64,000 nt of DNA, taken from a bacterium. Lineage in GTDB: Bacteria; Auribacterota; Tritonobacteria; UBA1439. The stretch covers positions 128,730-192,729 of the forward strand of contig JAQUPF010000004.1 in NCBI GenBank assembly GCA_028716845.1, read 5' to 3'. Shown in pieces: positions 22,880 to 48,397 of the stretch; the first letter of the stretch is position 1; every line of letters begins with the position of its first letter. The position numbers and the translations under genes were made by a program. The notes beneath the pieces are model-generated. The model had not been told where the DNA came from, searched no databases, and saw nothing but the letters and a program-made list of their open reading frames with translations.

Positions 22880-23215
22880 ATGAAGAAGACACTGTGCGCG
22901 ACGCTGGTCCTGCTGCTGCTCGCGGCATCGTCCGCCTTCGCCCGGCCGCGGCACCACCGGCACGGGTACCGGGGCCGCTACCGCCCCGGCTGCTCTGTCC
23001 CGGCGATCGTCGGCTCGGCCATCGGCGCCGGTCTCGGCGCGTACTGCGCGACCCGCTCATGGGACTCATGCGACCGTCCGTACGCCTACTCCCCCGCCCC
23101 CGTCTACTACTCTCCGCCGCCGCCGTACTACGCCCCGTACGCGTACGGCTATTACGTCTACCCGTCACCCTCGGTCTATGTTCGGGAATGCTACGTCCTC
23201 CCTCCCGGGTACTGA
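22880..23215 (+). CDS. Small secreted Tyr/Pro-rich protein
   Basis: The RBS GGGGAGGGA precedes signal peptide MKKTLCATLVLLLLAASSAFA. It has a glycine-zipper SAIGAGLGAY and a Y/P-rich C-terminus. Confidence 0.5.
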   Translation: MKKTLCATLVLLLLAASSAFARPRHHRHGYRGRYRPGCSVPAIVGSAIGAGLGAYCATRSWDSCDRPYAYSPAPVYYSPPPPYYAPYAYGYYVYPSPSVYVRECYVLPPGY

Positions 23216-23256
23216 AGACGTATTGCGGGACTGTTCGCGATTGATTGTGCTGCATG

Positions 23257-23332
23257 GATATTCGCCTCGCCGGCCCCGCGGGGCGAATAATGTTCCATCT
23301 CACTGGAAACAGGCTGGTTACATACATCGCCC
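23257..23332. repeat. PRE copy D (central hairpin plus right arm)
   Basis: ATTCGCCtcgccggccccgcGGGGCGAATAATGTTCCATCTCACTGG...GGTTACATACATCG. Confidence 0.6.
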
Positions 23333-26479: not shown

Positions 26480-26560
26480 TGTTCCGGGGTATGCGGGGTC
26501 GGACCACGATAACTCTTTCCGGTGGAATGAGATAAGCATATTTTCGGCACGGGATGGGAC

Positions 26561-26635
26561 AGGGGCGTTCGCCCCGCAGGGGCGAATATGATTCCATCCT
26601 ATTGAAGCCGGGCGGATTCCATACAACGTCTACTC
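26561..26635. repeat. PRE copy E (central hairpin plus right arm)
   Basis: GTTCGCCCCgcaGGGGCGAATATGATTCCATCCTATTG...CCATACAACGTCTAC has a perfect 8-bp central inverted repeat. Confidence 0.75.
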
Positions 26636-26663: not shown

Positions 26664-26770
26664 GCGGCAAGAGTAGTGGTATTCAGAGGGCAGAACTGAC
26701 CGCAAGGTGTTCAGTTATGCACCGTGCGGTTTTTCTGTGCGCCGCCGTTCCGGCAAGCGGGATTCGGCCC

Positions 26771-28693
<1,923 letters not shown>

Positions 28694-28775
28694 ACACGTA
28701 TTCGCCCCCCGCGGGACCCGGAAAGGCGAATTAATCCACACCATCCCGCGCCCATGGCATACAATGTCGATATCC

Positions 28776-29516
28776 ATGAAGAAGCTGCTCCACGCGCTGT
28801 ATCAACCATATAAGTGGCTGTTCTTCTTCCCTTATCTCGTTGTATCCACGATCGTTTTCGCCCTGGCGGCCATGCTCCTGGCCGCCGTCGCGAATGCCAG
28901 GATCGCCAGTTTCGTGGGCGGGGTGATTTGGGCCAGGCTGATCACCTGGTTGACTCCCGTGCTGGTGGAGGTTGTCGGGAGGGAGAATATCGATACGGGG
29001 CAGTCGTACGTCGTTATTTCGAACCACCGGAGTTTCTACGATATCTTCATCCTGTACGGCCGGCTGGGAATGGACATCAAGTGGATCATGAAACGGGAGT
29101 TGAAGAAGATCCCGTTCCTCGGCATCGCCGCTGAAACAGTCGGCCACATATATGTCGACAGGTCGAACATACGATCGGCGCTCGCCCTGGTAAAGGCGGT
29201 CAAGTCGAAGATGACGCGCGGCACATCCGTGGTCTTTTTCCCGGAGGGGACGAGGAGCAAAACCGGAGAAATGGGCGCCTTCAAGAAAGGCGCGTTTCTC
29301 ATCGCCGTTGATCTCGGACTCCCCATCCTCCCGGTGACCATAATCGGAACGGAAGGCATACTGCCGGCGAACACCATGGATCTGTTTCCCGGACGGGTGA
29401 AAGTGATCATCCACAAGCCGGTTCCTACCGCCGGCTGTCATCAGAATGACATCCAGGAATTGGCGGGCAGGGTGAGGGAGGTGATTCAATCAGGATGTCG
29501 CGGACGTCGCATCTGA
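28776..29516 (+). CDS. plsC: 1-acyl-sn-glycerol-3-phosphate acyltransferase
   Basis: The LPLAT motifs NHRSFYD and FPEGTRS are present, with an N-terminal TM helix. Confidence 0.8.
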   Translation: MKKLLHALYQPYKWLFFFPYLVVSTIVFALAAMLLAAVANARIASFVGGVIWARLITWLTPVLVEVVGRENIDTGQSYVVISNHRSFYDIFILYGRLGMDIKWIMKRELKKIPFLGIAAETVGHIYVDRSNIRSALALVKAVKSKMTRGTSVVFFPEGTRSKTGEMGAFKKGAFLIAVDLGLPILPVTIIGTEGILPANTMDLFPGRVKVIIHKPVPTAGCHQNDIQELAGRVREVIQSGCRGRRI

Positions 29517-29598
29517 CCCGCCCGGCGCGCACGAAAGGATGATGCCCCGCGCAACACGAACGGGGCAGGCCCATATTGAGCCGGGGCGCGGAGGACGC

Positions 29599-30327
29599 CT
29601 AGGGCTTGACGGCGAAATCCCAGCCCATCTGGATCGCCAGCCAATGCGGGAGAAGCATGACAGACCGGGAGTAATCCCAGCCCGCGCGTTCGATATATTC
29701 CCGTATCGTCGCCGAATACCGGTTTCCCGCGTCCGCGATGGACGTGATCGCCGTCGGATGGGGGCCGATCTTCGGGTCGTTTGTCACGCGGCAGGAATCG
29801 GGATGCGAACGGACATAATGGGTTCGGCACACGACCGGCCTCACCGGATAGGCGCTGCACGCGCCGCCTACCAGCAGGGGGCAACAATGGTCGTAACGGG
29901 AAAAATCCGTGCGCCCGCTGATGTCGGCCGGCGGACGGCTGCCCGGCCTGTAGTCGTTCCACTCATGCCATCGTTTCGTTCGGATCCGGAGGCTGCGTAT
30001 CCGGCCGGTCGAAAATTCCCGCCTGACATACTGCGCCAGGGCGTGGGCCTCCGCGACGTTCGTGACGATATGATGCCGGCAGCAGTGTGAACATCCCCGC
30101 GTGCACGCGGGGATGACGCCGTCCCCGCGACGCAGCCGGTCCAGCTCGCGCGCGATCGCTGAATCCAGCGATGCATAGACGCTGTTGACGAATTTCTCCT
30201 GCGGCGTGATCGGGGTATCGGCTCCGATTGTTTCATCGGCCGTCCGGGGACGGGCATTCTCTATCACATTCATTATCATTCTTTTCGCAGCAGCGGCTTT
30301 CTGCAGCCATGGTTCACGAAGATCCAT
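29599..30327 (-). CDS. YkgJ-family cysteine-cluster (Fe-S/Zn-chelating) protein
   Basis: CTRGCSHCC...C and a later CxxxxC match the UPF0153/COG0727 CxxCxxCC pattern. Confidence 0.6.
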   Translation of the reverse strand: MDLREPWLQKAAAAKRMIMNVIENARPRTADETIGADTPITPQEKFVNSVYASLDSAIARELDRLRRGDGVIPACTRGCSHCCRHHIVTNVAEAHALAQYVRREFSTGRIRSLRIRTKRWHEWNDYRPGSRPPADISGRTDFSRYDHCCPLLVGGACSAYPVRPVVCRTHYVRSHPDSCRVTNDPKIGPHPTAITSIADAGNRYSATIREYIERAGWDYSRSVMLLPHWLAIQMGWDFAVKP

Positions 30328-30407
30328 GATGATTGTAGCAGTATGCCGGGCCCTTTGCCATGCGGAGGCTGCATGGAACTGATTGCGATTGAAGGCGGCA
30401 CAAAGAC

Positions 30408-30485
30408 ATTCGCCCCGCGCGGCATGGGGGGCGAATAACCTTCCATCCTGTTGCAGACGTTGTGGTTACATACAACGTCTCCACT
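30408..30485. repeat. PRE copy F (central hairpin plus right arm)
   Basis: TTCGCCCCgcgcggcatgGGGGGCGAATAACCTTCCATCCTGTTGCAGACGTTGTGGTTACATACAACGTCTCC. Confidence 0.7.
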
Positions 30486-30665
30486 CGTGTATCATTGCCG
30501 CAGGACGGCGCCGCGGAGGGAGGCATGAGGGCATGAATCCGTGCACCTGCGCGCGGCGACCCTCGGCGGTGTCGATTCCGGAGAGGTCCGGCTGATGGGG
30601 AAACGGCTGTGAGAACGAACGGACTTCGCGCGGGACCGCCCGGTCCCGAAAACGATGCATCCAAA

Positions 30666-30740
30666 ATTGCCCCGCGGTTCCGGCAGGGAGAATTACCCTC
30701 CATCACTCTTGCCTGCAACGGGTTGCATAATACGTCTTTG
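30666..30740. repeat. PRE copy G (degenerate)
   Basis: ATTGCCCCGCGG...GAGAATTACCCTCCATCACTCTTGCC...GGTTGCATAATACGTCTT. Confidence 0.4.
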
Positions 30741-31679
30741 CCGGCAATCCTCGTCGCCGTGGTGACCGTCGCGGGGTGCGCGAGCCCCCCCGCGCTCCGC
30801 TGCGTCGACATGGACGCGCGAGGAGGCCGGCTCCTCCCCCTGGGGCTCAGCCCGGCGCGCGTGTACGGCATCGGCCTCTCCTACGCCGGCCACGCCGGGG
30901 AGACCGGCCTCCGGCGCCGCGCGCGCACGGGACCCCCGGTATTCGAGAAGGGCCCGTCCTCGCTCAATGCGATGGGCCGCCCGGTGCGGATGCCGTCGAG
31001 GGCCGAGCTCATCGACGCCCTCGAGCGGCTCGAGCCGGGTCTCGGGCGGAGGGCGGACAGGGAGTTCGCCGATCTCCCGGCGCTGCTCGATTACGAGGCC
31101 GAGCTCGCCTTCGTGCTGCTCGAGGACGTGGACTGGCGGCGGATCGACGAGCGGGCCTACGCCCCCCGGATGGGCTTCTTCATCGCGAACGACCTCTCCG
31201 CCCGCTCCGTCGCGGTACTGGGCGAGGGACGGCCCGACCGCGATGCATTCTGGGGCGCGTCGAAGAGCTTCCGCGGTTTCATGCCGGTCGGGCCGACCAT
31301 GTGGGTGCCGGATGCGTTGTCCCTCGACGCGGTCGTCTGCGTAATCCTCACCACCGAGGTGAACGGCGAGGTGAGACAGCGCGACTCGACCGGAAGGCTC
31401 CTCTACACGCCGCGGCGGATGCTGAAGGCCGTCGCCGCGCGCTTCCCCGACGACCTCCCGGCCGAGGGGGATGTCATACTCACCGGCACGCCGGCGGGGG
31501 TGGCCCTGCGGGTGCCGGCGTGGAAGACCGCCCTCGCTGATCTCCTCGGCATCGACCGGTTCGCCCGGCTGTCATCCGTCATCGGGATGGCGGAGCGGAG
31601 CGGCCGGTTCCTCGCCCCCGGCGACGAGGTGACCGTCTCGGGCGGTCCGCTCGGCTCGGTGACCACTGTCATCGAGTAG
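30738..31679 (+). CDS. Fumarylacetoacetate hydrolase (FAH) family protein
   Basis: The FAH fold carries DYEAELAFVL, GTPAGV and a metal-binding acidic cluster. The start is uncertain. A TTG at 30738 gives the hydrophobic N-terminus LPAILVAVVTVAGC (lipobox-like). The longer ORF from 30609 runs through PRE copy G, and an alternative ATG is at 30810. The stop TAG lies inside a short PRE left-arm remnant. Confidence 0.6.
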   Translation: MPAILVAVVTVAGCASPPALRCVDMDARGGRLLPLGLSPARVYGIGLSYAGHAGETGLRRRARTGPPVFEKGPSSLNAMGRPVRMPSRAELIDALERLEPGLGRRADREFADLPALLDYEAELAFVLLEDVDWRRIDERAYAPRMGFFIANDLSARSVAVLGEGRPDRDAFWGASKSFRGFMPVGPTMWVPDALSLDAVVCVILTTEVNGEVRQRDSTGRLLYTPRRMLKAVAARFPDDLPAEGDVILTGTPAGVALRVPAWKTALADLLGIDRFARLSSVIGMAERSGRFLAPGDEVTVSGGPLGSVTTVIE

Positions 31680-31898
31680 ACGTTGTACTGAACTGCTTGG
31701 GACCATGGATGTTGCAAACATATTCGGCGCGCGCGGCGCCGAGGGCATACACGTCGAAGACGCCGCGCCGCTGTCACCGATGAACGGCATCCGCCCGGCG
31801 GCCGGACCTGCTCCCGATTCCCATTTGCGCCCGCGCCATCGGCGGTGTATGGTGTATGCGCAGTTTGCCGTTCACGCACCGTACAAGGGAGGCGCGCC

Positions 31899-33299
31899 AT
31901 GTTCTTCAGGCAGTTCAGGGTGGAGGGGCTCGGGTGCTATTCGTACCTCGTCGGGTGTCCGCGGGCCGGGGTGGCCTGCGTGGTGGATCCGGAGCGGCAT
32001 GTCGACCGCTACCTCGATGCCGCGCGGGAGGAGGGGATGCGGATCACGCACATCTTCGATACCCATCTCCACGCCGACCACGTCACCGGGAGCCTCGAGC
32101 TCGCCCGCCGGACCGGGGCGGCGATCCACGTGCACCCGGCGGTCGAGGCCGGCTACGAGCATGTTCCCGCAAGGGGGGGCGACCGGTTCGTCCTCGGCGC
32201 GGCGGAGATCGAGGTCGTCGAGACGCCCGGCCACACGCCGAACTCCATCACCCTCGCGGTGACCGACGCCGCGCGCTCCCGGGAGCCGATGATGCTCCTC
32301 ACCGGCGACCTCCTCTTCGTCGGCGACATCGGCCGGCCGGACCTCGCCGGCGAGGACCTGCTCGAGGAGCAGGTGAAAAACCTCTATAGCAGTCTCTACC
32401 GGACGCTCTCCCGCTTCCCCGACTGGGTGGAGGTCTATCCCGCGCACGGGGAGGGGTCCCTCTGCGGGAAGGGGATGAGCGCCAAGCCGATGACCACGCT
32501 CGGCTTCGAGCGGCGCGCCAACCCGCTCCTCGCCGGCATGCCGTTCGAGAAGTTTCGGGAGATCATGACCGCGGAGTTCCAGGCACGACCCGACAATTTC
32601 GCGGTCATGGTGGAGAAGAATCGGAAGGGGCCCGCGCCGCTCGAGGAGGCCGCCGCCGTGCGGAGGCTCTCCGCCGACGAGGTGGAGGCGGCGCGGAAGG
32701 ACGGCGCCGTCCTCGTCGACCTGCGGGACGCGGAGGCGTTCGGGGCCGCGTTCATCCCCGGCTCCCTCAACATCGGCCTCCGCCCGCAATCGCCGAACTG
32801 GCTGGGGATGGTCGTCGAGGCGCGGGAGCGGATCGTCCTCATCGCCCACTCGGACGCCGACGCGGGGGCGGCGGTGGAGCAGTTCCGGCGGGTGGGCTAC
32901 GACGGCATCATCGGCTCCCTCGACGGAGGCATCTCCGACTGGGCCGCCCGGGGAAAGCCGCTCGACCACCTCCCGCAGCTCTCGGTGTTCAGCCTGGCGC
33001 ACGTGCTGGAGAAGTACCCCGACCACGTCCTCCTCGACGTGCGGACGGACGGCGAGTGGGAATCCGGCCGCATCGAGGGCGCCGTGCACACGCCGATCTC
33101 CGCGCTGCTCAAGGACGGGATCGAGGTCGACGCCTCGCGCCACGTCACGGCGATCTGCAACTCCGGCTACCGCTCGAACATCGCGGGGAGCTTCCTCAAG
33201 GCCCGCGGCTTCGCGCACGTCTTCAGCGTCATCGGCGGCATGACGGCGTGGGAGAACGCGCGGCGCGCCGGCGGTCTGGTGGATGGGCGGCCGGCGTGA
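31899..33299 (+). CDS. MBL-fold metallo-hydrolase fused to two rhodanese domains (persulfide dioxygenase/sulfurtransferase-like)
   Basis: The RBS AAGGGAGG precedes the start. The metallo-beta-lactamase motif is HxHxDH (THLHADHVTG). Two C-terminal rhodanese modules follow, the second with active-site CNSGYRS. Confidence 0.75.
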   Translation: MFFRQFRVEGLGCYSYLVGCPRAGVACVVDPERHVDRYLDAAREEGMRITHIFDTHLHADHVTGSLELARRTGAAIHVHPAVEAGYEHVPARGGDRFVLGAAEIEVVETPGHTPNSITLAVTDAARSREPMMLLTGDLLFVGDIGRPDLAGEDLLEEQVKNLYSSLYRTLSRFPDWVEVYPAHGEGSLCGKGMSAKPMTTLGFERRANPLLAGMPFEKFREIMTAEFQARPDNFAVMVEKNRKGPAPLEEAAAVRRLSADEVEAARKDGAVLVDLRDAEAFGAAFIPGSLNIGLRPQSPNWLGMVVEARERIVLIAHSDADAGAAVEQFRRVGYDGIIGSLDGGISDWAARGKPLDHLPQLSVFSLAHVLEKYPDHVLLDVRTDGEWESGRIEGAVHTPISALLKDGIEVDASRHVTAICNSGYRSNIAGSFLKARGFAHVFSVIGGMTAWENARRAGGLVDGRPA

Positions 33300-33309
33300 C
33301 GCGCCCCGC

Positions 33310-33471
33310 ACGGGAGACCGGCCTCCGGCGCCGCGCCCGCGCGGGACCCCCCGTCTTCAGCAAGAGCCCGGCCTCGCTCAACGCGGTGGGGCGGCCGGTG
33401 CGGATGCCGTCGGCGACGAGGTGACCGTCTCGGGCGGCCCGCTCGGCTCGGTAACCACTGTCATCGAGTAG
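33310..33471 (+). pseudogene. Internally deleted remnant of an FAH-family gene (paralogous to 30738..31679)
   Basis: 33310-33413 matches 30895-30998 at about 85%. It then jumps to match 31615-31679 at about 95%, including the shared ...GTCATCGAGTAGAC end. There is no start codon. Confidence 0.65.
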
Positions 33472-33712
33472 ACCCTGTACGAGGCATCTTGATCTTATTC
33501 GAATGGCGTACAGACGCGATTATGATTACGACGCATGTCTCGATCCGCGAGACTATCGCCCCGCAAGAACATAGAATTGATAGACGTTGAACGGAATTGA
33601 ATGGGTGCGAATGCGCTGCAAACCTGTTCGCCCCGCGCTGCACGCGGGGTAAATTTCATCCGATCACACTTATTTGCAGGAGGATATGTAATACGTCTTC
33701 TTATTGTAATTT
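33468..33712. repeat. PRE cluster H: left-arm remnant, then an inner motif, then central hairpin plus right arm
   Basis: TAGACCCTGTAC...CTTATTCGAATGG is followed by ...TAGACGTTGAAC... and then CTGTTCGCCCCGCGctgcaCGCGGGGTAAATTTCATCC...ATGTAATACGTCTTC. Confidence 0.5.
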
Positions 33713-33801
33713 GAGGCGGTCGGTGTGCATTACGGGTTGAGGATAATGGCATTGATCAGAGACGACCATTCCTGACAGCAGACACGGGAGATCTGATTCC
33801 G

Positions 33802-34083
33802 ATGACAGCCGAACTTGAAGCCCTCGTAAAGAAGGCGGCTGCCGCCATGATATCGGCGGGAGCCCGGGAGGTGTATCTGTTCGGGTCATCCTCGCGCGGC
33901 ATTGACGATGCTGAGTCGGATATCGACCTGGCGATCGCAGGTCTCCCCCCCGCACTCTTTTTCCGTACTATCGGCCTTGCCCGGCGCATTCTGAAGAAGC
34001 CGGTTGATCTTATCGATCTCGATGAGCCGAATCCCTTTACGGACTATCTGAAAACCAGCGGGGGGCTCATTCGTGTTGCATGA
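33802..34083 (+). CDS. MNT-type minimal nucleotidyltransferase (antitoxin of a HEPN/MNT pair)
   Basis: The Pol-beta NTase motif is GSSSRGIDDAESDIDLAI. It is 93 aa with a GGGAG RBS. Confidence 0.75.
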   Translation: MTAELEALVKKAAAAMISAGAREVYLFGSSSRGIDDAESDIDLAIAGLPPALFFRTIGLARRILKKPVDLIDLDEPNPFTDYLKTSGGLIRVA

Positions 34084-34168
34084 ATTAGGCCGGCAGGTTG
34101 ATGTGGAATGCCGCCAATTACGCCGGCTGTTGGAGACACATGCCGGTATTCTGGGCAGATGTCGCTAA

Positions 34169-34528
34169 TTCGCGCCTTCAGTTGATGAGAGGGCTGCACT
34201 CGCGGCTATTCTGCACGCTTTCTACAACGGCGTAGAGAATATTTTCAAACGAATTGCGCTGGCACTGGATCACGAGATCCCCCGCGGATTATCCTCACAT
34301 GCTGACTTGCTGGCTTCCATGACCAGCCCCAAACCCCATCGCCCCGCACTTCTCTCTGAATCGCTGTCCGAGACGCTTCAGGAATACCTTGATTTTCGTC
34401 ATGTATTCCGTCAGGCCTACAGTTTTGAATTGAGGTGGGAGAAGATGAAGCATCTTGTCCTTGGTTTGGGTGAAACATTCCAGCGCTTGGAGCAGGAATT
34501 GGGCGCCTTTTTAGGCAAGATGGAGTAA
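34169..34528 (+). pseudogene. HEPN-type NTase substrate-binding partner (HI0074/PF08780-like), N-terminally truncated or frameshifted
   Basis: The in-frame translation ...ILHAFYNGVENIFKRIALALDHEIPRGLSSHADLL...FRHVFRQAY... matches the NTase_sub_bind family. No ATG or GTG lies between the upstream TAA at 34166 and the first TTG at 34307. Confidence 0.45.
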
Positions 34529-34567
34529 TGGAGTAGAGGCTGGACGGCACCGGATTGGCTCGAACGC

Positions 34568-34615
34568 GTTGCAGACAAATTCGCCCCGCCTATTCTGCGG
34601 GGCGAATCTATTCCC
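34568..34615. repeat. PRE copy I (central hairpin only)
   Basis: GTTGCAGACAAATTCGCCCCGCctattctGCGGGGCGAATCTATTCC has a perfect 10-bp inverted repeat. It lies between convergent genes. Confidence 0.6.
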
Positions 34616-34654
34616 GGCGCGCCGATACGCCGGACAGCGGAGAGGCCGCCCGCG

Positions 34655-34861
34655 CTATTCGAGCTCGATGATCCCGCCGCACTCGGGGCACTTGAACTTC
34701 CCCTCGTCGCGGTCGATCCAGTAGACCGTGTCCTCGCCGGTCCCCACCCTGCCGCAGTGCGGGCACCGGTAGCTCCCGTCCCCCGGCATCTTGAAGATCC
34801 CGTCGTACCCGCTCGCCATCATCCCGAGCGTGTCTTCCAGGAACTCGTCCTCGCCGTACAT
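34655..34861 (-). CDS. Small zinc-ribbon protein
   Basis: The 68-aa protein has CPHCG...CPECG, two CxxC pairs. GGGAG-like RBS upstream. Confidence 0.5.
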   Translation of the reverse strand: MYGEDEFLEDTLGMMASGYDGIFKMPGDGSYRCPHCGRVGTGEDTVYWIDRDEGKFKCPECGGIIELE

Positions 34862-35072
34862 CGTCGCGATCTCCGGAACCCCTACTCCCCCACCCTCGTG
34901 CCTCGCGGAACAAGGTCACTCTATCGCTCCTGATCCGGCCGGGGCAAGCGAAATCCCGTCCGGTATGGCAGCGGAACGCCCCGCGTTTCCGCGGGGCGAA
35001 TATCCGCGCGCCATCTTCCGCCGGAGTATGCCGCGCCCAACGTCCGCGAGGGAACGCGGGCGGGTGCCCCGC

Positions 35073-36533
35073 CTACGCCTTCACCTCGCTCAAGGGGATG
35101 CCGAGCGCCTTCGCCACCCCCTTGCCGTAGGCGGGATCGGCCTTCATGCAGTGACGGGCGTGGCGGACCTTGATCTCCTTCGGCGCGTCGCCGAGTGCGC
35201 GGGCGGTGTTGCCGAAGAGCGCCTCCTGCTGCGCGGGCGTCATCAGCCGGAACAGCCTGCCGGGCTGGTCGAAATAGTCGACGTCGTCCTCGGCGTATTT
35301 CCAGCGGTCGGCGTCGCCGCTGATCTTGAGCGGCGGCTCCGCGAAGTCGGGCTGCTGCTGCCACTCGCCGTAGCTGTTCGGCTCGTAGGCGAGCGTGCCG
35401 CCGAAGTTGCCGTCCACGCGCATGGCGCCGTCCCGGTGGTAGCTGTGGGCGGGGCAGCGCGGCTTGTTGACCGGGATCAGGTGGTGGTTCACGCCGAGCC
35501 GGTAGAGCTGCGCGTCGTGGTAGGAGAAGAGGCGCCCCTGGAGCATCTTGTCCGGGGAGAACCCGATGCCGGGCACCACGCTCGCCGGGTTGAAGGCCGC
35601 CTGCTCGACCTCGGCGAAGTAGTTCTCCGGGTTACGGTTCAGCTCCATCATCCCCACCTCGATCAGCGGGTAGTCCTTGTGGAACCAGACCTTGGTCAGG
35701 TCGAACGGGTGGTACGGGCACTTCTCCGCGTCCTCCTCCGGCATCGCCTGGATGCAGAGCTGCCACTTCGGAAACGCCTTCCGCTCGATGCTCTCAAAGA
35801 GGTCGCGCCCGTGGCTCTCCCGGTCCTTCCCGACGAGGGCCTCGGCCTCTGCGTCCGTCAGGTTCTTGATGCCCTGCTGGCAGACCCAGTGGAACTTGAC
35901 CCAGTGCCGCTCGTTCGCGGCGTTGATCATACTGAAGGTGTGGCTCCCGAAGCCGTGCATGTGCCGGAAGGTGGCCGGGATGCCCCGGTCGCTCATCGTG
36001 ATCGTGACCTGGTGCAGGGCCTCGGGGAGCGAGGTCCAAAAGTCCCAGTTGTTCTTCGCGCTCCGCATGCCGGTGCGCGGATCCCGCTTCACGGCATGGT
36101 TGAGGTCCGGGAACTTGAGCGGGTCGCGCAGGAAGAAGACGGGCGTGTTGTTCCCCGCGAGGTCCCAGTTCCCTTCCTCCGTGTAGAACTTGACGGCGAA
36201 TCCGCGGATGTCGCGCTCCGCGTCCGCCGCGCCGCGCTCGCCGGCGACCGTGGAGAAGCGGACGAAGAGGTCGGTCTTCTTCCCGACCTTCGAGAAGAGC
36301 TTGGCCCTCGTGTAGCGGGTGATGTCGCGGGTGACGGTGAACGTCCCGTACGCCCCCCACCCCTTGGCGTGCATGCGCCGCTCGGGGATGACCTCCCGGT
36401 CGAAGTGGGCGAGCTTCTCCAGGTACCAGACGTCCTGCAGCAGCATCGGGCCGCGCGGCCCGGCGGTCAGCGAGTTCTGGTTGTTCGGGACCGGCGCCCC
36501 CACCTTGGTCGTCAGCTTCTTTTTATCATCCAT
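35073..36533 (-). CDS. katA: Monofunctional haem catalase
   Basis: The catalase signatures FDRERIPERVVHAKG-like ([15 protein letters not shown]), RLFSYHDAQ and proximal Tyr context are present. The start MDDKKKL has a GGAGG RBS. Confidence 0.9.
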
Positions 36534-36943
36534 GGTCTCCTCCCCTGCGGGGCGCCGCCTCGGCCCGCGCCGCATCGGCGGCACCCGCGGTGCAATTGTA
36601 TGAAAGAAAGGACGGGACGGCCATGAGATTTTCCGGCCGACGCTCCGCTTTTCCGCTTGACTTTCATGATGTATCTTGTTACCTCCCAACCGGTTGCACG
36701 ATCAGGAACAGGGGATGCGGGAGTGGCGCGGGAGTGCGCGGCGGGGATCGGCGACCACCTCCTGCCCCTGATCGGGAAATGCCGCTCCGCATTCCCCGTC
36801 GCCACGTTCGTCCGGGACCGCCATGAGCGGCATCCCGGCGGGGGTGAAGATCACCCGGCGCGGCGCCCGCGCGGCGCTGGCCCGGGCCCTCATGGGGGGT
36901 ATCTCCACCTGTCACGGCCGGGCTCCGGGGGGAGGGATCGCAC

Positions 36944-37255: not shown

Positions 37256-37414
37256 AGCGCCCCTCCCGGGATCAACCGTGACGGCCGTCGCGGAGGGCCC
37301 CATCCACCGGCGCGGGGACGTCCGCCCGGAATTGTTTTCCGCGGCGCCGTCCGCCGGGCCGACATGGACGCGGACACCCGGCTGAACCGGTCGACGTCGC
37401 CGGTGATGTCCACG

Positions 37415-37490
37415 GATTCGCCCGGCAGGGGCCCGGGGCGAATAAGTTTCCATCCTATTGGCAGATAAGAAGTTGGATACAACGTCTACG
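37415..37490. repeat. PRE copy J (central hairpin plus right arm)
   Basis: GATTCGCCCGGcaggggCCCGGGGCGAATAAGTTTCCATCCTATTGGCAGATAAGAAGTTGGATACAACGTCTACG. Confidence 0.75.
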
Positions 37491-38756: not shown

Positions 38757-38786
38757 CTGAAGGGAGCGGGGACGGATATGAGCGGG

Positions 38787-38925
38787 CGGATGGAGAAGAC
38801 AACTGCCGCGTGGTGAGGGATTATTCAGCGAGCAACGGCCGGGGCCCTACGGCGGAATGGCACATTGCCGGCGAGCATTCCGCGTCGCCTCCGTCCATTT
38901 GTAAAGAGTAAAGGTGTGACCCCCA
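38787..38925. repeat. Roughly 135-bp dispersed repeat, copy 1 (paralog at 46135-46268)
   Basis: GGATGGAGAAgacaactGCcGcGtGGTGAGGGAtTATTCAGCGAGCAAcGGCCgGGgCCt... is about 75% identical to the second copy. Confidence 0.5.
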
Positions 38926-40316: not shown

Positions 40317-40740
40317 GATCCCGTTCGCACCCGCGATTATATCAGAAGAGGCGAGACGTTTGATTTCACACTCCGACCGTCGGCAGCTTGCTGATCGACG
40401 GGCCGGCTATCCGGCTGCCTCATGGACGTCCCGAAACAGCGGATAAGCGGAACCTGCTTCCCTGAAGGTTCAGAAACTTATGAGTCAATAGTAGAGGTCT
40501 GACCCTGATTTATTACACCTGCCGCTGCTGCACATGCAAGCCACGCTTCTCAGGTCGGGTGCAGCGTATGGTTAGATTACGCTGTTGTAGAATACTTCCT
40601 GATATAGGCTGATCTAAAATAAGCACCTAGTAAAGCACCCAAGTAAGAACTTATGCTCCAGACAAGAATACAAATAAGCATCTCAAACGAAAACTCAGGA
40701 TACCTGATTAGGATGAATATTGAATAACGGAATTATCTTG

Positions 40741-40770
40741 TTGACAAACCCACCTCCCCCAGGGTATATT
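40741..40770 (+). promoter_or_regulatory. Sigma70 promoter for the transposase (TTGACA, 18-bp spacer, TATATT)
   Basis: TTGACA is at 40741-40746 and TATATT at 40765-40770. The GGAGGTGG RBS is at 40781-40788, before the ATG at 40794. Confidence 0.6.
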
Positions 40771-40793
40771 AGTACCAGAAAATGGAGGTGGCT

Positions 40794-41690
40794 ATGAACC
40801 TGATTGAGATTAGCAGAATGTCGGAGAATGAGGCAAGGGAATACGTCGAGAGTATCCGTTGGCCGCAAGGCCCCGTGTGCCCCCACTGCGGCGACAAGAA
40901 GCGCGCCTATCCGCTCAAGGGCAAGGCGACGAGGTCCGGCGTATACAAGTGCGGGGCCTGTCGGAAGCAGTTTACTGTGACAGTCGGTACGGTCCTCCAC
41001 CGCTCGCATATCTCCCTGAGACAGTGGATTATCGCCTTCCATCTGATGTGCTCCAGCAAGAAGGGCGTCTCGGCCCTCCAACTTCAGCGCGAAATGGGCC
41101 TGAAGTCCTATCAGGCCGCGTGGTTTCTCGCGCATCGTATACGCGCCGCCATGAAGGAAGACCCGCTCGCCTCTCTCCTCGACGGCACGGTGGAGGCGGA
41201 CGAGACTTACATCGGGGGGAAGGGAAAGCCCGGATCGAAGCGCGGTAGGGGCACCTCGAAGATGCCGGTGGTCGCGCTCATATCCCGTAAGGGGCGCGCA
41301 TACTCGAAGCCGGTCGAGCGCGTCAACGCCAAGGAACTGAAGGGCGCGATCCGTAAGATGGTAAGTAAGGATTCCAGGATAATCACCGACGAGTGGAAAG
41401 CGTATCAGGGGATAGGGAGAGAATTCGCGGGCGGACACGAATCGGTAAATCACGGAGAAAAGGAGTACGCCCGCGGCGATGTTCATGTAAACAATGCGGA
41501 ATCTTACTTTGCTTTACTGAAGCGCGGTGTACATGGTATATTTCATCATGTCTCCCGCGAACATCTTGGACGTTACTGCGATGAGTTCTCATTCCGCTGG
41601 AATCATCGTAAAGTATCCGATGGTGAAAGGACGATCGCGGCTATCCGGGGAATCGCAGGGAAGAGGTTGGCATATCAGGCAAGCCGGTAG
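40794..41690 (+). CDS. IS1595-family (ISXO2-like) transposase
   Basis: The N-terminal zinc-ribbon is CPHCG...CGAC. The DDE region is present. The C-terminal family signature is HVNNAESYFALLKRG...EFSFRWNHR. Confidence 0.8.
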   Translation: MNLIEISRMSENEAREYVESIRWPQGPVCPHCGDKKRAYPLKGKATRSGVYKCGACRKQFTVTVGTVLHRSHISLRQWIIAFHLMCSSKKGVSALQLQREMGLKSYQAAWFLAHRIRAAMKEDPLASLLDGTVEADETYIGGKGKPGSKRGRGTSKMPVVALISRKGRAYSKPVERVNAKELKGAIRKMVSKDSRIITDEWKAYQGIGREFAGGHESVNHGEKEYARGDVHVNNAESYFALLKRGVHGIFHHVSREHLGRYCDEFSFRWNHRKVSDGERTIAAIRGIAGKRLAYQASR

Positions 41691-41711
41691 TTTATAAAGA
41701 AGCATCTTACA

Positions 41712-42647
41712 ATGATAAGGCAAGAATACTTATTCAATATGAGCAATGCCATACGCCAGAAATTAGGCAAGTACCAGATTTTTAATATAGATGCTTTTCT
41801 CTGGCTATCGAATGCAAAACCCAATTCTATTCATGCGGTCGTCACTGATCCCCCCTATGGGTTGGTGGAATATACAGCGAAACAACTCGAAAAGAAAAAG
41901 AACGGGAATGGCGGAGTCTGGAGAATCCCTCCATCGTTCGATGGTTGCCAACGCAGCCCCTTGCCGCGCTTCACTATCCTTAATGGGAATGACAAAGAAG
42001 CATTGAGGTCATTTTTCGATAAGTTAGCGCGCGAGCTTTTACGTGTCCTAGTCCCGGGCGCCCATGTATTCATCGCCACAAACCCACTTGTTTCTTATCT
42101 GGTTTATGAGCCGTTCATCTCCAATGGATTCGAGAAGCGAGGGGAGGTTATTCGAGTGGTTCAAACCCTAAGAGGCGGCGACCGCCCTAAAAACGCGCAT
42201 CAGGAATTCCCTGACATATCTGTAATGCCAAGGTCGTGTTGGGAGCCGTGGGGTCTATTTAGAAAGCCATGCGAGGGTAGAGTGCAGGATAACCTGCGCA
42301 AATGGCGGACTGGAGGATTGCGCCGCGTTTCAGATACCGAACCTTTCAAGGATTTGATTTATTCGCCGCCCGCACGCGGAATAGAACGTGAAATTGCCCC
42401 GCACCCATCATTAAAACCGCAGCATTATCTTAGGCAGATTGTCAGGGCAGCGCTGCCTCTTGGCAGCGGAATCATTCTCGACCCATTCATGGGGTCAGGG
42501 TCTACCATTGCTGCCGCAGTGGCGTGCGGTCTTGAAAGTATAGGGCTGGAAGTTAATAATGAGTTCTTTGGAATTGCTGAAAGGGCCATTCCGAAACTCG
42601 CCATTTATAATCCTTCCGGAGACAATAATAATGGTCCGGAATACTGA
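41712..42647 (+). CDS. Beta-class DNA methyltransferase (N6-adenine or N4-cytosine)
   Basis: Motif IV DPPY (VVTDPPYG) precedes motif I FMGSGSTIAAA, a circularly permuted beta-group arrangement. Confidence 0.8.
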   Translation: MIRQEYLFNMSNAIRQKLGKYQIFNIDAFLWLSNAKPNSIHAVVTDPPYGLVEYTAKQLEKKKNGNGGVWRIPPSFDGCQRSPLPRFTILNGNDKEALRSFFDKLARELLRVLVPGAHVFIATNPLVSYLVYEPFISNGFEKRGEVIRVVQTLRGGDRPKNAHQEFPDISVMPRSCWEPWGLFRKPCEGRVQDNLRKWRTGGLRRVSDTEPFKDLIYSPPARGIEREIAPHPSLKPQHYLRQIVRAALPLGSGIILDPFMGSGSTIAAAVACGLESIGLEVNNEFFGIAERAIPKLAIYNPSGDNNNGPEY

Positions 42648-43239
42648 CTTTAATAATTCTGTCCCCTTGCCTCCGGGGCTCGCCATTGCTTCAATAAGGA
42701 AGGCGATAGAATACGTGGAAAGGGAATTGGCTGACTTAGCAGAACTCTATTTTGAGCAAGCGAATGTATTCAGCGCCTTAGTTGGGATATATGCTACTAA
42801 AGCACTTGATGCAAACAGTGTGTATGAAAAGCAGCGACATGCCGATTTGGCGCAACAGCGATTCCCTGATTTGAAAAAGCGCGGAAGCGGTGCAAAGCCA
42901 AGCCCACGAGAATCACTTGAATGCAAAGCGAGTAAAAGACCATGGGCAGTGCAATCGCATTACGACCATTCCGGTTGGTATATTATCTGGCGCTATCTTG
43001 TCGATACAACCTGTTCACTTGAGCGCAATCGCCCGGTAATTATCTGGAGAGTTGATGTTGTCTTCGTAAAGAAGAACGATTGGAAATATGAGGGTAGCAA
43101 GGCAAAAGCCGGCAGAGGTGGAAGAACCCATACTTTTGGGATGAAAAACCCGGCATCCAAGTTAAAAAATGCTGCTGTTTATAATCGCGTAGATGTAAAG
43201 ATCTCTGGAGGGAAAGCTATCCCTCGAAACGGAGGGTGA
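42631..43239 (+). CDS. Putative type II restriction endonuclease partner of the MTase
   Basis: It overlaps the MTase stop by 17 nt. It carries a PD-(D/E)xK-like PRESLECK motif. It has low GC and no other recognisable domain. Confidence 0.4.
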   Translation: MVRNTDFNNSVPLPPGLAIASIRKAIEYVERELADLAELYFEQANVFSALVGIYATKALDANSVYEKQRHADLAQQRFPDLKKRGSGAKPSPRESLECKASKRPWAVQSHYDHSGWYIIWRYLVDTTCSLERNRPVIIWRVDVVFVKKNDWKYEGSKAKAGRGGRTHTFGMKNPASKLKNAAVYNRVDVKISGGKAIPRNGG

Positions 43240-43399
43240 TACAGGAGGATAAGATGGCCCATGAAAAAAGAGAAGGGAAATCACGCCGCCTAAAACCCAT
43301 TTCTCTTCATCCTCTTCCAGTCCAAGATGCCATATCGGCTTTCATTGCCGTTGATCCGAAGAAGATTGAAGAGAGGATGAAACGGGAAAAGAAGCAGGA

Positions 43400-44377
43400 T
43401 TAGATTGCTGGCAGATTATCAGACATAGGTTTTTGAACATCGGCTACTGGAGCCATTGCTTTTAACTTCTCCGAGATTATCCTTTCTCGTTCCATTCTAA
43501 AAGAATCTTGATTGATAACTTCAAGAATTTTTGAAACTGGCACCACAATAGCTATCCCCATATTCAACCGCTCTTCGAGAAGCGCATTATCGGACGTGCT
43601 TGCATCTTCTGATAATTTCGATTCCCAGTGACCGTGCATAAGACCCATCCAATAAAATAGTCTCTCGGCACCCGTTCTAAAAGATTTCCCTATAACGCGA
43701 CTAGCGCCGGTATACAGGAATACTGGTGATCCACTCAGCCCACCAATTGATCTGGCTTCCACCAAATAAGCGTCGATAGGCCCGAGGTCGTCCGTATGTA
43801 CCCGCTCATCTGGCATAAGTGCTATATTCCCAACTCTGACAATGGGGAGATTCTTTTGACGACCATAATGACTTGAAAATAGCCCGGTTAAAAATACCTC
43901 GTCTCCAACTCCAATCCCTTCCGATTTAATTACCTTATCGGTCATAACCATCTCTAGGGGGATAGACATATAGTCGAACCGATCAATCGGGAGCATCAAT
44001 GACAATACTGCTACATCCACAGATTTATCGTTGGGATGGAACATCCAATTTGCTAATGGAGTTGAAACGTATGCGCTTGATCCGGCAGTAGTATTCACCC
44101 TCAACCACACCTGCCCATCCGTGGCATGCTTCTTGACATGTTCTATGACGTGCCGCGCTGTAACAATGTAGGCGAAAAAAATAGAGTTATCTGTTGGGAT
44201 GGAAACCGCAACGAAAAATACAGTACCGGCTAAAGCATATCCATCGCCTACTTTAAAGCAGGCGAATGCCACGCATTTTCGTACCGTGTCCGGAACTTGC
44301 ATGGGATTACGCTCCTCTTCGGCAACGTAATACTGAGGGCATCCCCCCAAACGATAATCTACCATAAGCCTGTTCAT
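43400..44377 (-). CDS. Trypsin-like (S1/chymotrypsin-fold) serine protease
   Basis: The His motif is TARHV and the Ser motif is GGLSGSPVF (GDSGGP-like). GC is about 45%. Confidence 0.65.
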   Translation of the reverse strand: MNRLMVDYRLGGCPQYYVAEEERNPMQVPDTVRKCVAFACFKVGDGYALAGTVFFVAVSIPTDNSIFFAYIVTARHVIEHVKKHATDGQVWLRVNTTAGSSAYVSTPLANWMFHPNDKSVDVAVLSLMLPIDRFDYMSIPLEMVMTDKVIKSEGIGVGDEVFLTGLFSSHYGRQKNLPIVRVGNIALMPDERVHTDDLGPIDAYLVEARSIGGLSGSPVFLYTGASRVIGKSFRTGAERLFYWMGLMHGHWESKLSEDASTSDNALLEERLNMGIAIVVPVSKILEVINQDSFRMERERIISEKLKAMAPVADVQKPMSDNLPAI

Positions 44378-44413
44378 TGTCGTGCTATAATTCCCTATGA
44401 AAACATGGGTTTG

Positions 44414-44698
44414 TTAAGCGGATAATTCCGTTGAATAATATAGCCCTGTACTAAGTACTAAATAGTTCCAAAACGATTTCCTAAGATATGGCTGTCCCAA
44501 ATAGCTAGCCAAACAACTGCCTAAAGCAAAGCATAATGGAAATACTATTAGAAAGATGATCCCGAGCAAAGATTCTGGAGATCTACCAGTTTTCACTACT
44601 ATCGGTCTAAAGATAACTACTTCAATAATTGCGTACAAACTGAGAGAGACAGAAATACCGATAATCAAATACAAGATCAATAAGCATAGCTTCTTCAT
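44414..44698 (-). CDS. Small membrane protein
   Basis: It has 3 predicted TM helices, low GC, and a Lys-Lys N-terminus. Confidence 0.4.
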   Translation of the reverse strand: MKKLCLLILYLIIGISVSLSLYAIIEVVIFRPIVVKTGRSPESLLGIIFLIVFPLCFALGSCLASYLGQPYLRKSFWNYLVLSTGLYYSTELSA

Positions 44699-44784
44699 GA
44701 TTCAATGTAATCTAACGTTCAGGCCGAGACGCGTTTTTATGCGCCAGCATAAATACGTAGTCTCCAGCCTCTGGTTCGACCCTC

Positions 44785-45291
44785 TTATATCAGTCTTGTG
44801 ATCAGAACGATTGCCAAAGCTCCGAGTGCAGCAAGATACGTTTTGGGGGGTAAGCGAAAGCGCATGCCCCACGCGATGCTGATGTATGCCAGATTGAACA
44901 GGACGAGCAGAGCATCGAAGAGCGTACGAAGTGCCTCTGCGAAGAAGCTGTTGACGTCGTCCGGAATGGCACGCAGCAGTGCCGTGAAGCCAAGAACCAT
45001 GAACGCCGCTGCTACTTGGAAGTAGAAGAACTCCTGAGTGCTCAGTCGTGGCTCGGTCCACGCACGGCCCTTCCGAACGAAGTGTCGCCACATCAGAACG
45101 AGGATGAGCCCCCAGAGACATAGTATCAGCCAAGGGGCGAATCGTCCCGCATTGCTGTCTTCGCCGAAGGCAAACAGGATTATGGCAACAAGGGCTGCGA
45201 CCGGAAACACGAGCATGCCGCCACCGACGACGAGGTAGATCGCCATACTTGCTATCGAGTTTGTCTGCCATGTTGTGCGTGCTCGAGTCAT
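44785..45291 (-). CDS. Membrane protein
   Basis: It has 4-5 predicted TM helices. The start is trimmed to MTRARTTWQT. Confidence 0.4.
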   Translation of the reverse strand: MTRARTTWQTNSIASMAIYLVVGGGMLVFPVAALVAIILFAFGEDSNAGRFAPWLILCLWGLILVLMWRHFVRKGRAWTEPRLSTQEFFYFQVAAAFMVLGFTALLRAIPDDVNSFFAEALRTLFDALLVLFNLAYISIAWGMRFRLPPKTYLAALGALAIVLITRLI

Positions 45292-45449
45292 CTTCTCACG
45301 AGGTCGAACGATTACTTGGGTTCGAATTCCTTTTCCGCGAGTGATGATCACAGCAAATGTCTTCCCATGGAAAATATGTTGCGACGGACAATATGAATAC
45401 CTGAAATCAAGTTATATCCAGGAAGAGGCTCCAATCAACGACAGCCTCT

Positions 45450-45690
45450 CTAGCGTAATGGGCGGCCCATGCGAGGCGTCTCGATGGGACCATACGGTTC
45501 GCCCCGCTGCTTCTCCAGCTTCGCCACGAGATCCCGAACGGCCTGATTCACCACGTCCGAGCGGGTCACCCGATCCCACCACGCCACCCGGCGAATCGCC
45601 TCAGCAACGTACGCGGCGAGTTCGATTGTCTGCCGGTACGTCTCGCCCTTGGCCCTCCGCGGGCGGGTCCATCCCCCAGGTTGTCTGACG
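45450..45690 (-). pseudogene. Ribbon-helix-helix (CopG/Arc-like) protein remnant, no intact start
   Basis: The minus-strand translation ...GETYRQTIELAAYVAEAIRRVAWWDRVTRSDVVNQAVRDLVAKLEKQRGEPY has an RHH beta-strand plus two helices. The upstream reading frame is broken. The stretch has high GC, unlike its flanks. Confidence 0.3.
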
Positions 45691-46134
45691 TGTCGCCGTA
45701 TCTTTTCAAGGCATGGCCGGACCGCCGGGGACTTTCCCAGGGAGCGCCTTGAGCGTCATCGAGTGATCCATTGAAATGTCAGCGGTCATACCTGTTATCC
45801 CGTCGGCACCAAGATGGATTGTAAACGACAAATGTACTAATAGTCCAAGGGAAATCAGGGAATTCGCGTTAGTAGAGTATCGGTAATCCGCTATCCTTTC
45901 AGTTTACCGCGATCGGCAGGATCCAGGGGGTCTGCTTGCTTTTGGCTATGTGCTTTCGGATGGTACCATTGAAAATGGGTTGTTACAATCCGAATCGCAC
46001 TCAACGCAAATAGGAAATAGCCGGCGGCAGACCTCTACTATTGACTAGACCATGGTGGAAGATTCAGAAACCCATTAGTCAATTGTAGAGGTCTGATTCT
46101 GATTTTACACAGAAGGGAAAAGGCACGAGCGAGA

Positions 46135-46268
46135 GGATGGAGAAACGGCTGCAGACCGGTGAGGGACTATTCAGCGAGCAATGGCCGTGGCCTGACCTCG
46201 GAATAACCCAATTACGGCGAGCATCCCAAGTCGGCGCTTTCTATTGTTAAGAATAAAGATGTGACCGC
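46135..46268. repeat. Roughly 135-bp dispersed repeat, copy 2
   Basis: It is the paralog of 38787-38925 and sits immediately 5' of the IstB fragment. Confidence 0.5.
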
Positions 46269-46443
46269 AAGCACCATGATGACCTCCAACCGCCCCATCG
46301 AGGAATGGGAGAAGCTCATCGGCGATGTCCCCTCGGCAACGGCCATCCTGGACCGCTTCCTGCACCACGCCGAGATTATCCCGATCAAGGGCATGAGTTA
46401 CCGATTGAAAGATCGGGCTTGCATATCTATCAAGGAAGGATGA
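46261..46443 (+). pseudogene. IS21-family IstB helper ATPase, C-terminal fragment
   Basis: TSNRPIEEWEKLIGDVPSATAILDRFLHHAEIIPIKGMSYRLKDR is the IstB C-terminal consensus. No istA or N-terminal part is present. Confidence 0.7.
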
Positions 46444-46530
46444 TTATCTGATCACTTACTGGCTGATTTTTAAGTAACCGCGAGTAGCTGATTATGATGT
46501 GACCGGTGACATTAAGAGGAGATGACCAAT

Positions 46531-46941
46531 ATGGACATATCCGCAGATGAGATCAAGGAGGGATTGGTCCTGTTCCTCGACCCGGAGATTTTAATCGCTA
46601 AAGGCGCAACGTGCTCAGTGCCAGATAATTATAGGGCGAGAAAGAGTCGGCCCTTTTTATGCATAGATGCAGATTCATCTTCTGGTACCTGTATTCCACT
46701 CTATAGCTCTGATGCTAAGGGCCGAGGACCAATTGAGGAAGATAGCAAAGAGGGAGATGATATATGGATAGTTAGTGACAGCTACTATGACACTAGGCAA
46801 CAATGGAATGCGGTGGCCCATGAAACAATCATAGCTGCTGCTAGGGGAGATCAATCAACTACTGATCTAAGAAACACCGTTACTCCTGAGTGCCTTCGAG
46901 ACATTAAAGAAGATTACAGAATCAGCAATCGCCTGGCATAG
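46531..46941 (+). CDS. Hypothetical protein (low GC)
   Basis: The AGGAG RBS is followed by an ORF of about 136 aa with no recognisable domains. Confidence 0.35.
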   Translation: MDISADEIKEGLVLFLDPEILIAKGATCSVPDNYRARKSRPFLCIDADSSSGTCIPLYSSDAKGRGPIEEDSKEGDDIWIVSDSYYDTRQQWNAVAHETIIAAARGDQSTTDLRNTVTPECLRDIKEDYRISNRLA

Positions 46942-47055
46942 CCAAACCGCCTCAGCATCCAGCAACCCGTTCAGCGTCTCCTCAAACGATCTCCGCACCA
47001 CCCTGTCCAGATGCGCCCGGATCTCACCCTCATCAACCTCAGAAACGCTCTTCAA
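46920..47055 (-). pseudogene. IS256-family transposase N-terminal fragment
   Basis: LDRVVRRSFEETLNGLLDAEAVWLCQA matches the IS256 N-terminal consensus (VEETLNALLDAEADxLC). It is truncated by the low-GC insert and has high GC. Confidence 0.5.
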
Positions 47056-48269: not shown

Positions 48270-48397
48270 TTTGCACCTCGCCTATCCTTCTCTCATAGTG
48301 TCTGGTTATATCCCGTTCCTCCGTGGCTGGTTATGACCGGCCGATGACACTTTATCAGTGCCGACATCATCCCCGAAACATAATGCACCCTCCAAGG

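Follow-up and report, generated by a model that had tools for sequence, protein, structure and literature searches.

A 64-kb stretch of contig JAQUPF010000004.1 (hereafter, the window) contains a gene of the FAH family that is capped at both ends by short palindromic elements (PREs) and is followed by an intact gene for an MBL-fold protein with two rhodanese domains. Directly downstream of the latter lies a 178-nt sequence (33303-33480) that is best explained as noncoding DNA left over, after extensive deletion, from a second FAH copy; the latter would have arisen by duplication of the PRE-capped gene and then decayed. We assign this explanation a probability of roughly two-thirds. No function of its own can be detected for the relic, which represents a fresh instance of a well-known process, ordinary bacterial gene duplication followed by decay. 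A sequence-only reading of this region had recognized a paralogous FAH copy with an internal deletion, which our analysis confirms; the deletion spans 622 nt, and the gene was copied together with at least the first 11 nt of the PRE that follows it. The same reading had gone on to propose a tandem duplication, or capture of the MBL-rhodanese gene by the PREs, as a sign that these elements are recombinationally active. Those proposals fare less well, as discussed below.

The Parent Gene and Its Probable Relic

The parent gene occupies 30738-31679 on the plus strand and encodes a 313-residue protein (MDD5556541.1), as defined by Pfam, the NCBI annotation, and ortholog alignment. Its match to PF01557 (E=1.7e-31) covers profile positions 2-212 of 214, indicating a full-length FAA_hydrolase domain, and 969 homologs are found at E<=1e-10. 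A start at 30609 had been suggested, but the open reading frame (ORF) from that position reads through a PRE; the NCBI start is the TTG at 30738, and orthologs align from there. Three parts of this region, all on the plus strand, bear on the relic. Segment B (30889-30996, from alignment) was copied into it, segment C (30997-31618, 622 nt, from alignment) is absent from it, and segment D (31619-31688, from alignment and a repeat search) covers the stop codon, the 19 codons that precede it, and the 11-nt PRE arm AGACGTTGTAC.

Gapped local alignment resolves the relic into two plus-strand pieces that are joined directly. Piece B′ (33303-33410) matches 30889-30996 at 92 of 108 positions (85.2%), and piece D′ (33411-33480) matches 31619-31688 at 66 of 70 (94%). 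Self-BLAST of the window pairs 33303-33412 with 30889-30998 (85.5% over 110 nt, E=1.7e-29) and also recovers the 3′ piece (E=1.3e-24), so the similarity to FAH is real and far beyond chance. The repeat search concurs, matching 33303-33412 to 30889-30998 (85%) and 33406-33480 to 31614-31688 (92%; families D1 and D2). Both pieces are detected by tblastn, with 83% identity over 35 amino acids for B′ (E=4e-12). No further FAH-like DNA was found within the window beyond these two pieces by self-BLAST and tblastn. The earlier description of two joined FAH pieces therefore stands, although its length of 162 nt does not. The relic is 85% (B) and 97% (D) identical to the resident gene versus 57-77% and 69-81% to the orthologs, and the longest exact word common to both copies is 27 nt.

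The relic begins 3 nt past the MBL-rhodanese stop codon and lacks the first ~150 nt of FAH. The skipped parent segment is 622 nt long (622 mod 3 = 1), which puts the join out of frame; the two pieces are read in different frames, and coding capacity is lost. Microhomology at this internal junction is limited to the dinucleotide CG (2 nt), which is uninformative in DNA of 70% GC, and the longer match reported previously (GCCGTCG/GCGACGAG) is not upheld. Piece D′ encodes a 19-residue C-terminus and stop codon identical to those of FAH, followed by the arm AGACCCTGTAC. Its coding part differs from FAH at two positions, both synonymous, such that the peptide GDEVTVSGGPLGSVTTVIE is unchanged. The PRE arm AGACGTTGTAC at the end of FAH (31678-31688) begins within the TAG stop codon (31677-31679); the fragment shows the same arrangement, as TAGACCCTGTAC, in agreement with the sequence-only reading.

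A 62-residue ORF overlapping the relic (33283-33471) has no Pfam match, and the Logan gene caller places no gene there. Folding gives no signal of RNA structure in the relic (z=-0.32), Rfam contains no matching family, and a terminator scan finds no plus-strand terminator. With all three results negative, a functional RNA or terminator was rejected as an interpretation of the fragment.

A chimeric or collapsed join that places FAH-like reads after the MBL-rhodanese gene deserves consideration, given that the source is a metagenome-assembled genome (MAG) and that repeat-rich intergenic DNA is prone to mis-joins. The arrangement was compared with the Logan assembly of SRR22315506, which comes from an independent assembler, although its reads may be the same as those of the MAG. 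One unbranched 6910-bp contig of that assembly is 100% identical to window positions 28478-35387 and spans all three junctions. The Logan assembler presumably uses k=31; because the longest word shared by the copies is 27 nt, a k=31 graph cannot join them. Moreover, the copies are 6-15% diverged, and a chimera would give no diverged copy. The arrangement is thus upheld, and mis-assembly is almost certainly not its cause.

Palindromic Elements Around the Gene

A PRE profile was built from seven full copies and used in an nhmmer search of the window. About 15 copies were detected, with E values down to 1e-28. They lie at 11549-11671, 12913-13034, 23213-23331, 26519-26634, 28653-28777, 30360-30482, 30621-30739, 31676-31762, 33581-33703, 34533-34615, 37367-37490, 55824-55946, 58257-58375, and 61121-61246, with an additional weak match at 34978-35046 (E=0.0015). 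A PRE of 115-120 nt is laid out as an arm AGACGTTGTAT, the motif GGATGGAA, a hairpin ATTCGCCCC-loop-GGGGCGAAT, and an arm GCATAAYACGTCT. The arm motif AGACGTTGTAT occurs 21 times versus 6.7 times expected. Orientations are mixed within the window, and PRE ends are mutually 55-78% identical (22-45% different). Eight copies fall in 28.6-35 kb, where nearly every spacer holds one. PRE arms overlap the start codons of flanking genes (TTG 30738, ATG 28764) as well as a stop codon (TAG 31677-31679), and PREs also adjoin housekeeping genes (TypA/BipA, 26717-28693; catalase, 35073-36689). No target-site duplications flank four complete copies, Rfam has no match for the PREs, and none was found on the contigs of seven FAH relatives. 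Being short, noncoding, multicopy, and bounded by terminal inverted repeats, the PREs are treated here as an old family resembling transposable elements of the miniature inverted-repeat type (MITEs) or repetitive extragenic palindromic (REP) sequences.

No transposase or integrase partner, and no Phage_integrase-domain match, was found among the ~29 window ORFs scanned, which make up about half of the candidates, those outside the scan lying mostly in 0-23 kb. The termini of an IS1595-family transposase copy in the window (40782-41690) are unrelated to the PREs, and IS1595 was rejected as their autonomous partner on this basis. A metagenome scan with the PRE signature returned one match, on an unrelated 56%-GC JGI contig, Ga0315291_10005512 (L048:12323-12497). 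This 175-nt element is a perfect-armed palindrome, AGACGTTGTATATAACTCTCTC...GAGAGAGTTATATAAAACGTCT, with the same TTATTCGCCCC...GGGGCGA core, indicating that the PRE family extends beyond the source genome; it carries no information on the FAH locus. In the window, a 26-nt mini-palindrome at 30455-30480 (AGACGTTGTGGTTACATACAACGTCT) consists of two PRE arms placed back to back and lies at the outer end of the PRE at 30360-30482.

The PRE directly 5′ of FAH (30621-30739, plus strand; nhmmer match 30639-30739, E=2.9e-8 and 2.2e-10) ends in a right arm, TTGCATAATACGTCT, that abuts or overlaps the TTG start at 30738. Directly 3′ of the FAH stop lies a short or half PRE (31676-31762; E=1.1e-7 on the minus strand and 8.8e-5 on the plus strand), which supplies the "AG" of the TAG stop codon and is probably also the source of the last ~3 codons (VIE). 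These boundaries coincide with the points at which FAH departs from its orthologs. The closest relatives are 81, 80, 78, 75, 73, and 67% identical. Orthologs start with a lipoprotein-type signal (MR...AGCA) and finish on ...RIVR*, ...IAP*, or the like; their stop codon is TGA, and the arm motif is missing. In the window gene, the N-terminus up to the lipobox is replaced by sequence contiguous with the right arm of the PRE, and the C-terminus reads ...TTVIE*, with its TAG overlapping the arm. Both termini therefore diverge from the orthologs exactly where PREs abut. The relic shares the derived TTVIE* end, the stop codon, and the arm with resident FAH. In addition, the arm variant ...GTAC is common to the FAH and relic arms only; other PRE-associated arms read ...TAT, except that at 33582 (...GAAC). 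Because the relic shares TTVIE*, the stop codon, and this rare arm variant, the duplication is younger than the PRE insertion.

A "PRE cluster" had been described after the fragment; we find one full PRE there (33581-33703, plus strand), identified by the repeat search (D14, D4) and by nhmmer (E=2.5e-23, a circular score since this copy is among the seven profile seeds). Its left half matches the post-FAH PRE best (73%) at a constant offset of 1904, compared with 1792 for the gene pieces, and the two PREs are reciprocal or near-reciprocal best matches. These similarities weakly suggest that 33581-33703 is possibly the duplicated counterpart of the post-FAH PRE, in which case the copied unit would have held the whole PRE. 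If so, a 112-nt segment (33470-33581) between two arm copies is extra in the relic copy. The right half of 33581-33703 resembles the PRE upstream of FAH no more than it resembles other copies; a hybrid PRE or unequal-crossover signature was accordingly rejected, the right-half similarity being generic.

Between the relic and this PRE lies segment X (33481-33580), 100 nt of AT-richer sequence as delimited by the profile search and the GC profile. An arm copy borders it on each side, TAGACCCTGTAC at 33469-33480 and TAGACGTTGAAC at 33581-33592. The profile search does not recognize it as a PRE even with filters off, and it is unique in the window; readings of it as a degenerate PRE or as a derivative of the FAH 3′ flank were both tested and rejected. 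At 33480/33481, GC drops from ~0.73 to ~0.5 and stays low up to ~34600, through an MNT/HepT gene pair. The onset of this low-GC islet (33481-34650, 0.49-0.58 versus ~0.70 in the flanks) falls exactly at the 3′ end of the relic. Its toxin-antitoxin pair, made up of genes for an MNT-type nucleotidyltransferase (33802-34083) and for a HepT-like protein (34307-34528), lies between two PREs.

Age of the Duplication

When the copies are compared in the FAH frame, 9 synonymous and 7 nonsynonymous codon differences are counted. By the Nei-Gojobori method, the synonymous divergence (dS) is 0.225, the nonsynonymous divergence (dN) is 0.081, and their ratio (omega) is 0.36; overall nucleotide divergence is ~11%. 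The dS between resident FAH and its closest ortholog (81% amino acid identity) is 0.44 for these codons and 0.37 for the gene as a whole. Set against these values, the dS of the relic places the duplication at about half the distance to the nearest known relative. Polarizing 18 differences with four outgroups assigns 10 to the live-gene branch and 7 to the relic branch, with 1 ambiguous (p=0.63). Divergence is 15% in piece B versus 3-6% in D, a borderline difference (Fisher p=0.03-0.09). B is more diverged than D because this segment evolves fast in all orthologs (58-71% nucleotide identity), and gene conversion was rejected as an unneeded explanation given that fast segment and the borderline p value.

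The MBL-Rhodanese Gene and Synteny

The gene between the two copies (31899-33299, plus strand) is intact, and its coordinates are those given in the sequence-only reading. It encodes a 466-residue protein (MDD5556542.1) with an MBL-fold domain (PF00753) and two rhodanese stretches (PF00581), and it is preceded by a 136-nt spacer (31763-31898) that ends in a ribosome-binding site, AAGGGAGG. Among 5.8 billion proteins, its best homolog is 74% identical and belongs to Ca. Tritonobacter lacicola (Auribacterota), where it resides in a peroxiredoxin/sulfur-transporter/rubrerythrin cluster without FAH. The C-terminal tail of the window protein is ~6 residues longer than those of the closest homologs, so the left breakpoint of the relic may fall within its last codons.

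In the FAH relatives, the neighboring genes include purH with small ORFs, aldehyde dehydrogenase, AAA_14/DUF4143, and metallophosphoesterase or BNR-repeat genes. No shared neighbors, FAH/MBL-rhodanese adjacency, fragment, or PRE was found in the contexts of six close FAH relatives and the closest MBL-rhodanese homolog. By tblastx, the sole shared neighbor is a multicopy AAA_14 gene, which in the window is 18 kb distant. Species-representative genomes contain FAH homologs of <=34% identity only, which makes their synteny uninformative. On this comparison, the adjacency of FAH and MBL-rhodanese is specific to the source lineage. The synteny check suggested earlier is thus answered in part: contexts differ, and no intermediate state was found among the genomes examined. 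The window AAA_14/DUF4143 ATPase gene (11628-12911) has PREs on both sides, and its ortholog in one relative (82% identical, L042:2880-4061) lies directly upstream of FAH.

Proposed Origin of the Relic

Our studies suggest the following course of events. In the first step, which the ortholog comparison shows and confines to the source lineage, MITE-like PREs inserted at both ends of FAH, replacing the original N- and C-terminal codons and supplying the TAG. FAH would then have been duplicated together with at least the adjacent PRE arm (the first 11 nt) and possibly the whole downstream PRE. The MBL-rhodanese gene could lie between the copies if the duplicated unit was larger than FAH or if a later insertion or rearrangement placed it there. 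Finally, the redundant copy would have been trimmed by ordinary deletional decay. The first loss may have extended from the MBL-rhodanese stop codon through FAH position 30888; the out-of-frame 622-nt internal deletion, with its 2-nt junction microhomology, would have followed, and a further break or insertion presumably occurred right after the PRE arm (33480). Rapid deletional removal of pseudogenes is an established process in bacteria (PMC2916853, PMC6054270).

Several observations weigh against this account. No intermediate, either a full-length second copy or a relic-less locus, is present among the genomes examined, and the contexts in relatives all differ. A one-step model would be more parsimonious than three separate deletions or breaks. 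No acceleration in rate is seen on the relic branch, such that decay has not been faster than change in the live gene, although the counts are small. Its changes (3 synonymous and 4 nonsynonymous) carry no clear omega=1 signature and are too few to decide. A functionless relic at ~11% divergence also outlasts the expectation for pseudogene extinction (PMC2916853). Its long survival suggests that the second copy retained its function during a large part of this period or that deletion is slow in this lineage.

The order of events differs from that proposed from the sequence alone. A tandem duplication is not demonstrated, in that an intact, unrelated MBL-rhodanese gene separates the copies, no head-to-tail copies exist, and there are three breakpoints. 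Duplication plus one deletion is likewise insufficient; with the 5′ ~150 nt gone and the relic abutting the MBL-rhodanese stop codon, at least two or three rearrangements are needed.

An unlikely alternative to duplication and decay is that the relic is a footprint of the PREs themselves, left by unequal crossover, by mobilization of a PRE-FAH-PRE composite, or by capture of the MBL-rhodanese gene. FAH is indeed bracketed precisely, with arms overlapping its start and stop codons, its context is different in every relative, and the breakpoint at 33480/33481 coincides exactly with the inner limit of the 11-nt arm. In other bacteria, paired miniature elements are able to mobilize the DNA between them (PMC4133298). 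However, a PRE is met at a single breakpoint out of three, and such adjacency is expected by chance given that the window holds ~15 copies, 8 of them in a span of 6.4 kb; because nearly every spacer of 28.6-35 kb holds one, being bracketed by PREs is uninformative. The lack of target-site duplications at four complete PREs, of a hybrid PRE, and of a cognate transposase among the ORFs scanned also argues against this explanation, as do the unrelated termini of the IS1595 copy. With ends 55-78% identical and no long identical tracts evident, we infer that PREs would be poor RecA substrates today. The MBL-rhodanese gene is flanked by PREs (31676-31762 and 33581-33703), yet they have degenerate ends, and a duplication outside them cannot be seen. 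With no hybrid PRE found either, and no transposase or integrase partner among the ORFs scanned, element-mediated capture is not supported. The broader notion that PREs are a present or past mobile family moving flanking genes, and that FAH travelled as a PRE-FAH-PRE unit, is improbable. If true, it would explain the varying context of FAH, its element-derived start and stop codons, and a decayed copy ~2 kb away, and the relic would mark the mobilization of a gene by miniature elements in a bacterial lineage that is uncultured and unclassified.

It is also rather unlikely that no full second copy ever existed and that the relic is a one-step templated insertion, similar to those of microhomology-mediated break-induced replication (MMBIR) or fork stalling and template switching (FoSTeS). 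Here, repair or replication restart past the MBL-rhodanese gene would have sent the nascent strand to FAH, 2.4 kb away, where ~108 nt and then ~70 nt were copied before its return. Two short collinear patches in the same orientation, a nearby template, a 2-nt microhomology join, and the absence of other FAH-derived pieces in 64 kb are all consistent with such an event, and it would replace three events with one. On the other hand, a third patch is required if the PRE at 33581-33703 is a duplicated counterpart (offset 1904), and, with ~11% divergence and no pre-event sequence for comparison, only the internal junction can be judged for microhomology. For bacteria, much less documentation exists for templated insertions than for deletional decay. 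Retention of the fragment for a function, either as part of the MBL-rhodanese 3′ untranslated region or as the 62-residue ORF (33283-33471), which ends in the 19 C-terminal residues of FAH, is very improbable. The identical peptide GDEVTVSGGPLGSVTTVIE, persistence to ~11% divergence, and a relic branch without excess changes would fit such a role. Nevertheless, nothing follows from two synonymous changes, FAH and the ORF use different frames for the 5′ piece, and no Pfam match, Logan gene call, structure signal, or terminator accompanies it. An assembly artifact has next to no likelihood in light of the Logan contig.

Among known systems, duplication and decay place the relic closest to bacterial pseudogene relics (Kuo & Ochman 2010, PMC2916853; Danneels et al. 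2018, PMC6054270), with which it shares a paralogous, parent-adjacent, truncated, frameshifted, and noncoding character as well as piecemeal trimming to the edge of a functional neighboring gene. It differs in being unusually old (dS ~0.23), in having a branch no longer than that of the live gene, and in the unrelated intact gene that separates it from its parent. Like REP- or MITE-mediated tandem duplications and composites of MITE pairs (TIMEs, PMC4133298), FAH is flanked by repeats on both sides and its copy includes part of a repeat. Unlike those systems, no hybrid join-point repeat, target-site duplication, or transposase partner was found here, the FAH copies are not head-to-tail, and the PREs are highly diverged. 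REP join-points occur in duplications of Salmonella.

The PREs themselves can be compared with MITEs that overlap ORF termini and remodel them, namely, QMITE1/2 of Coxiella (PMC5896051) and the enterobacterial RU/ERIC-type elements (PMC2229807, PMC2759123). Shared features are a short length, inverted terminal arms, a central hairpin, multiple copies, a 3′-end or intergenic location, and overlap with start or stop codons. In contrast, PREs have no sequence relationship to them (by the Rfam comparison only), lack flanking direct repeats, and reside in an unclassified, high-GC, uncultured bacterium. The locus also recalls integron cassette arrays and clusters of attC sites lacking integron-integrases (CALINs) in having one or two unrelated genes between imperfect palindromes, a toxin-antitoxin pair, and a duplicated cassette-like gene. 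The polarity of PREs (5′-GTTGTAT...ATACAAC-3′), however, is the reverse of that of attC (5′-RYYYAAC...GTTRRRY-3′). An integron cassette array was rejected on this wrong core polarity, the mixed orientations, the housekeeping neighbors (TypA/BipA, catalase), and the lack of an integrase among the ~29 ORFs scanned. Rickettsia palindromic elements are a further class that remodels ORF termini.

These results make the relic a cautionary case: the duplication is genuine, but what remains is an old, decayed remnant and not evidence that PREs are recombinationally active. That claim is weakened by the presence of PREs in nearly every spacer, by the one breakpoint in three at a PRE, by ends that are 55-78% identical, and by the age of the event. 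The relic also serves as a relative time stamp, with PREs at the FAH ends before the duplication (dS ~0.23 ago). Their absence from relatives with FAH 67-81% identical dates the PRE invasion of the source lineage, and FAH stayed functional after PRE insertion had rewritten its termini.

Other Features of the Window

An N-terminal lipoprotein-type signal, in which a hydrophobic stretch precedes an AGC/GC lipobox, is present in all close FAH orthologs (window 30738-30800; P0002-P0009). This signal suggests that the clade comprises exported or membrane-anchored FAH-family enzymes, which would be unusual for the family. A lower-GC mobile/defense island at 40700-53800 contains the IS1595-family transposase (40782-41690), an N6/N4 DNA methylase (41712-42647), a RelA/SpoT-domain protein (47217-48269), a Type ISP restriction-modification enzyme (49468-52899), and a RAMA-domain protein (52965-53792). 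Dispersed repeats near IS1595 are unrelated to PREs (46127-46266 versus 38780-38921, 76% over 142 nt; 46058-46110 versus 40464-40518, 84% over 55 nt). At 4783-6486, a 567-residue ORF contains ~150-nt periodic repeats of ~65-70% identity (self-BLAST, 4909-5964) and probably encodes a repeat protein.

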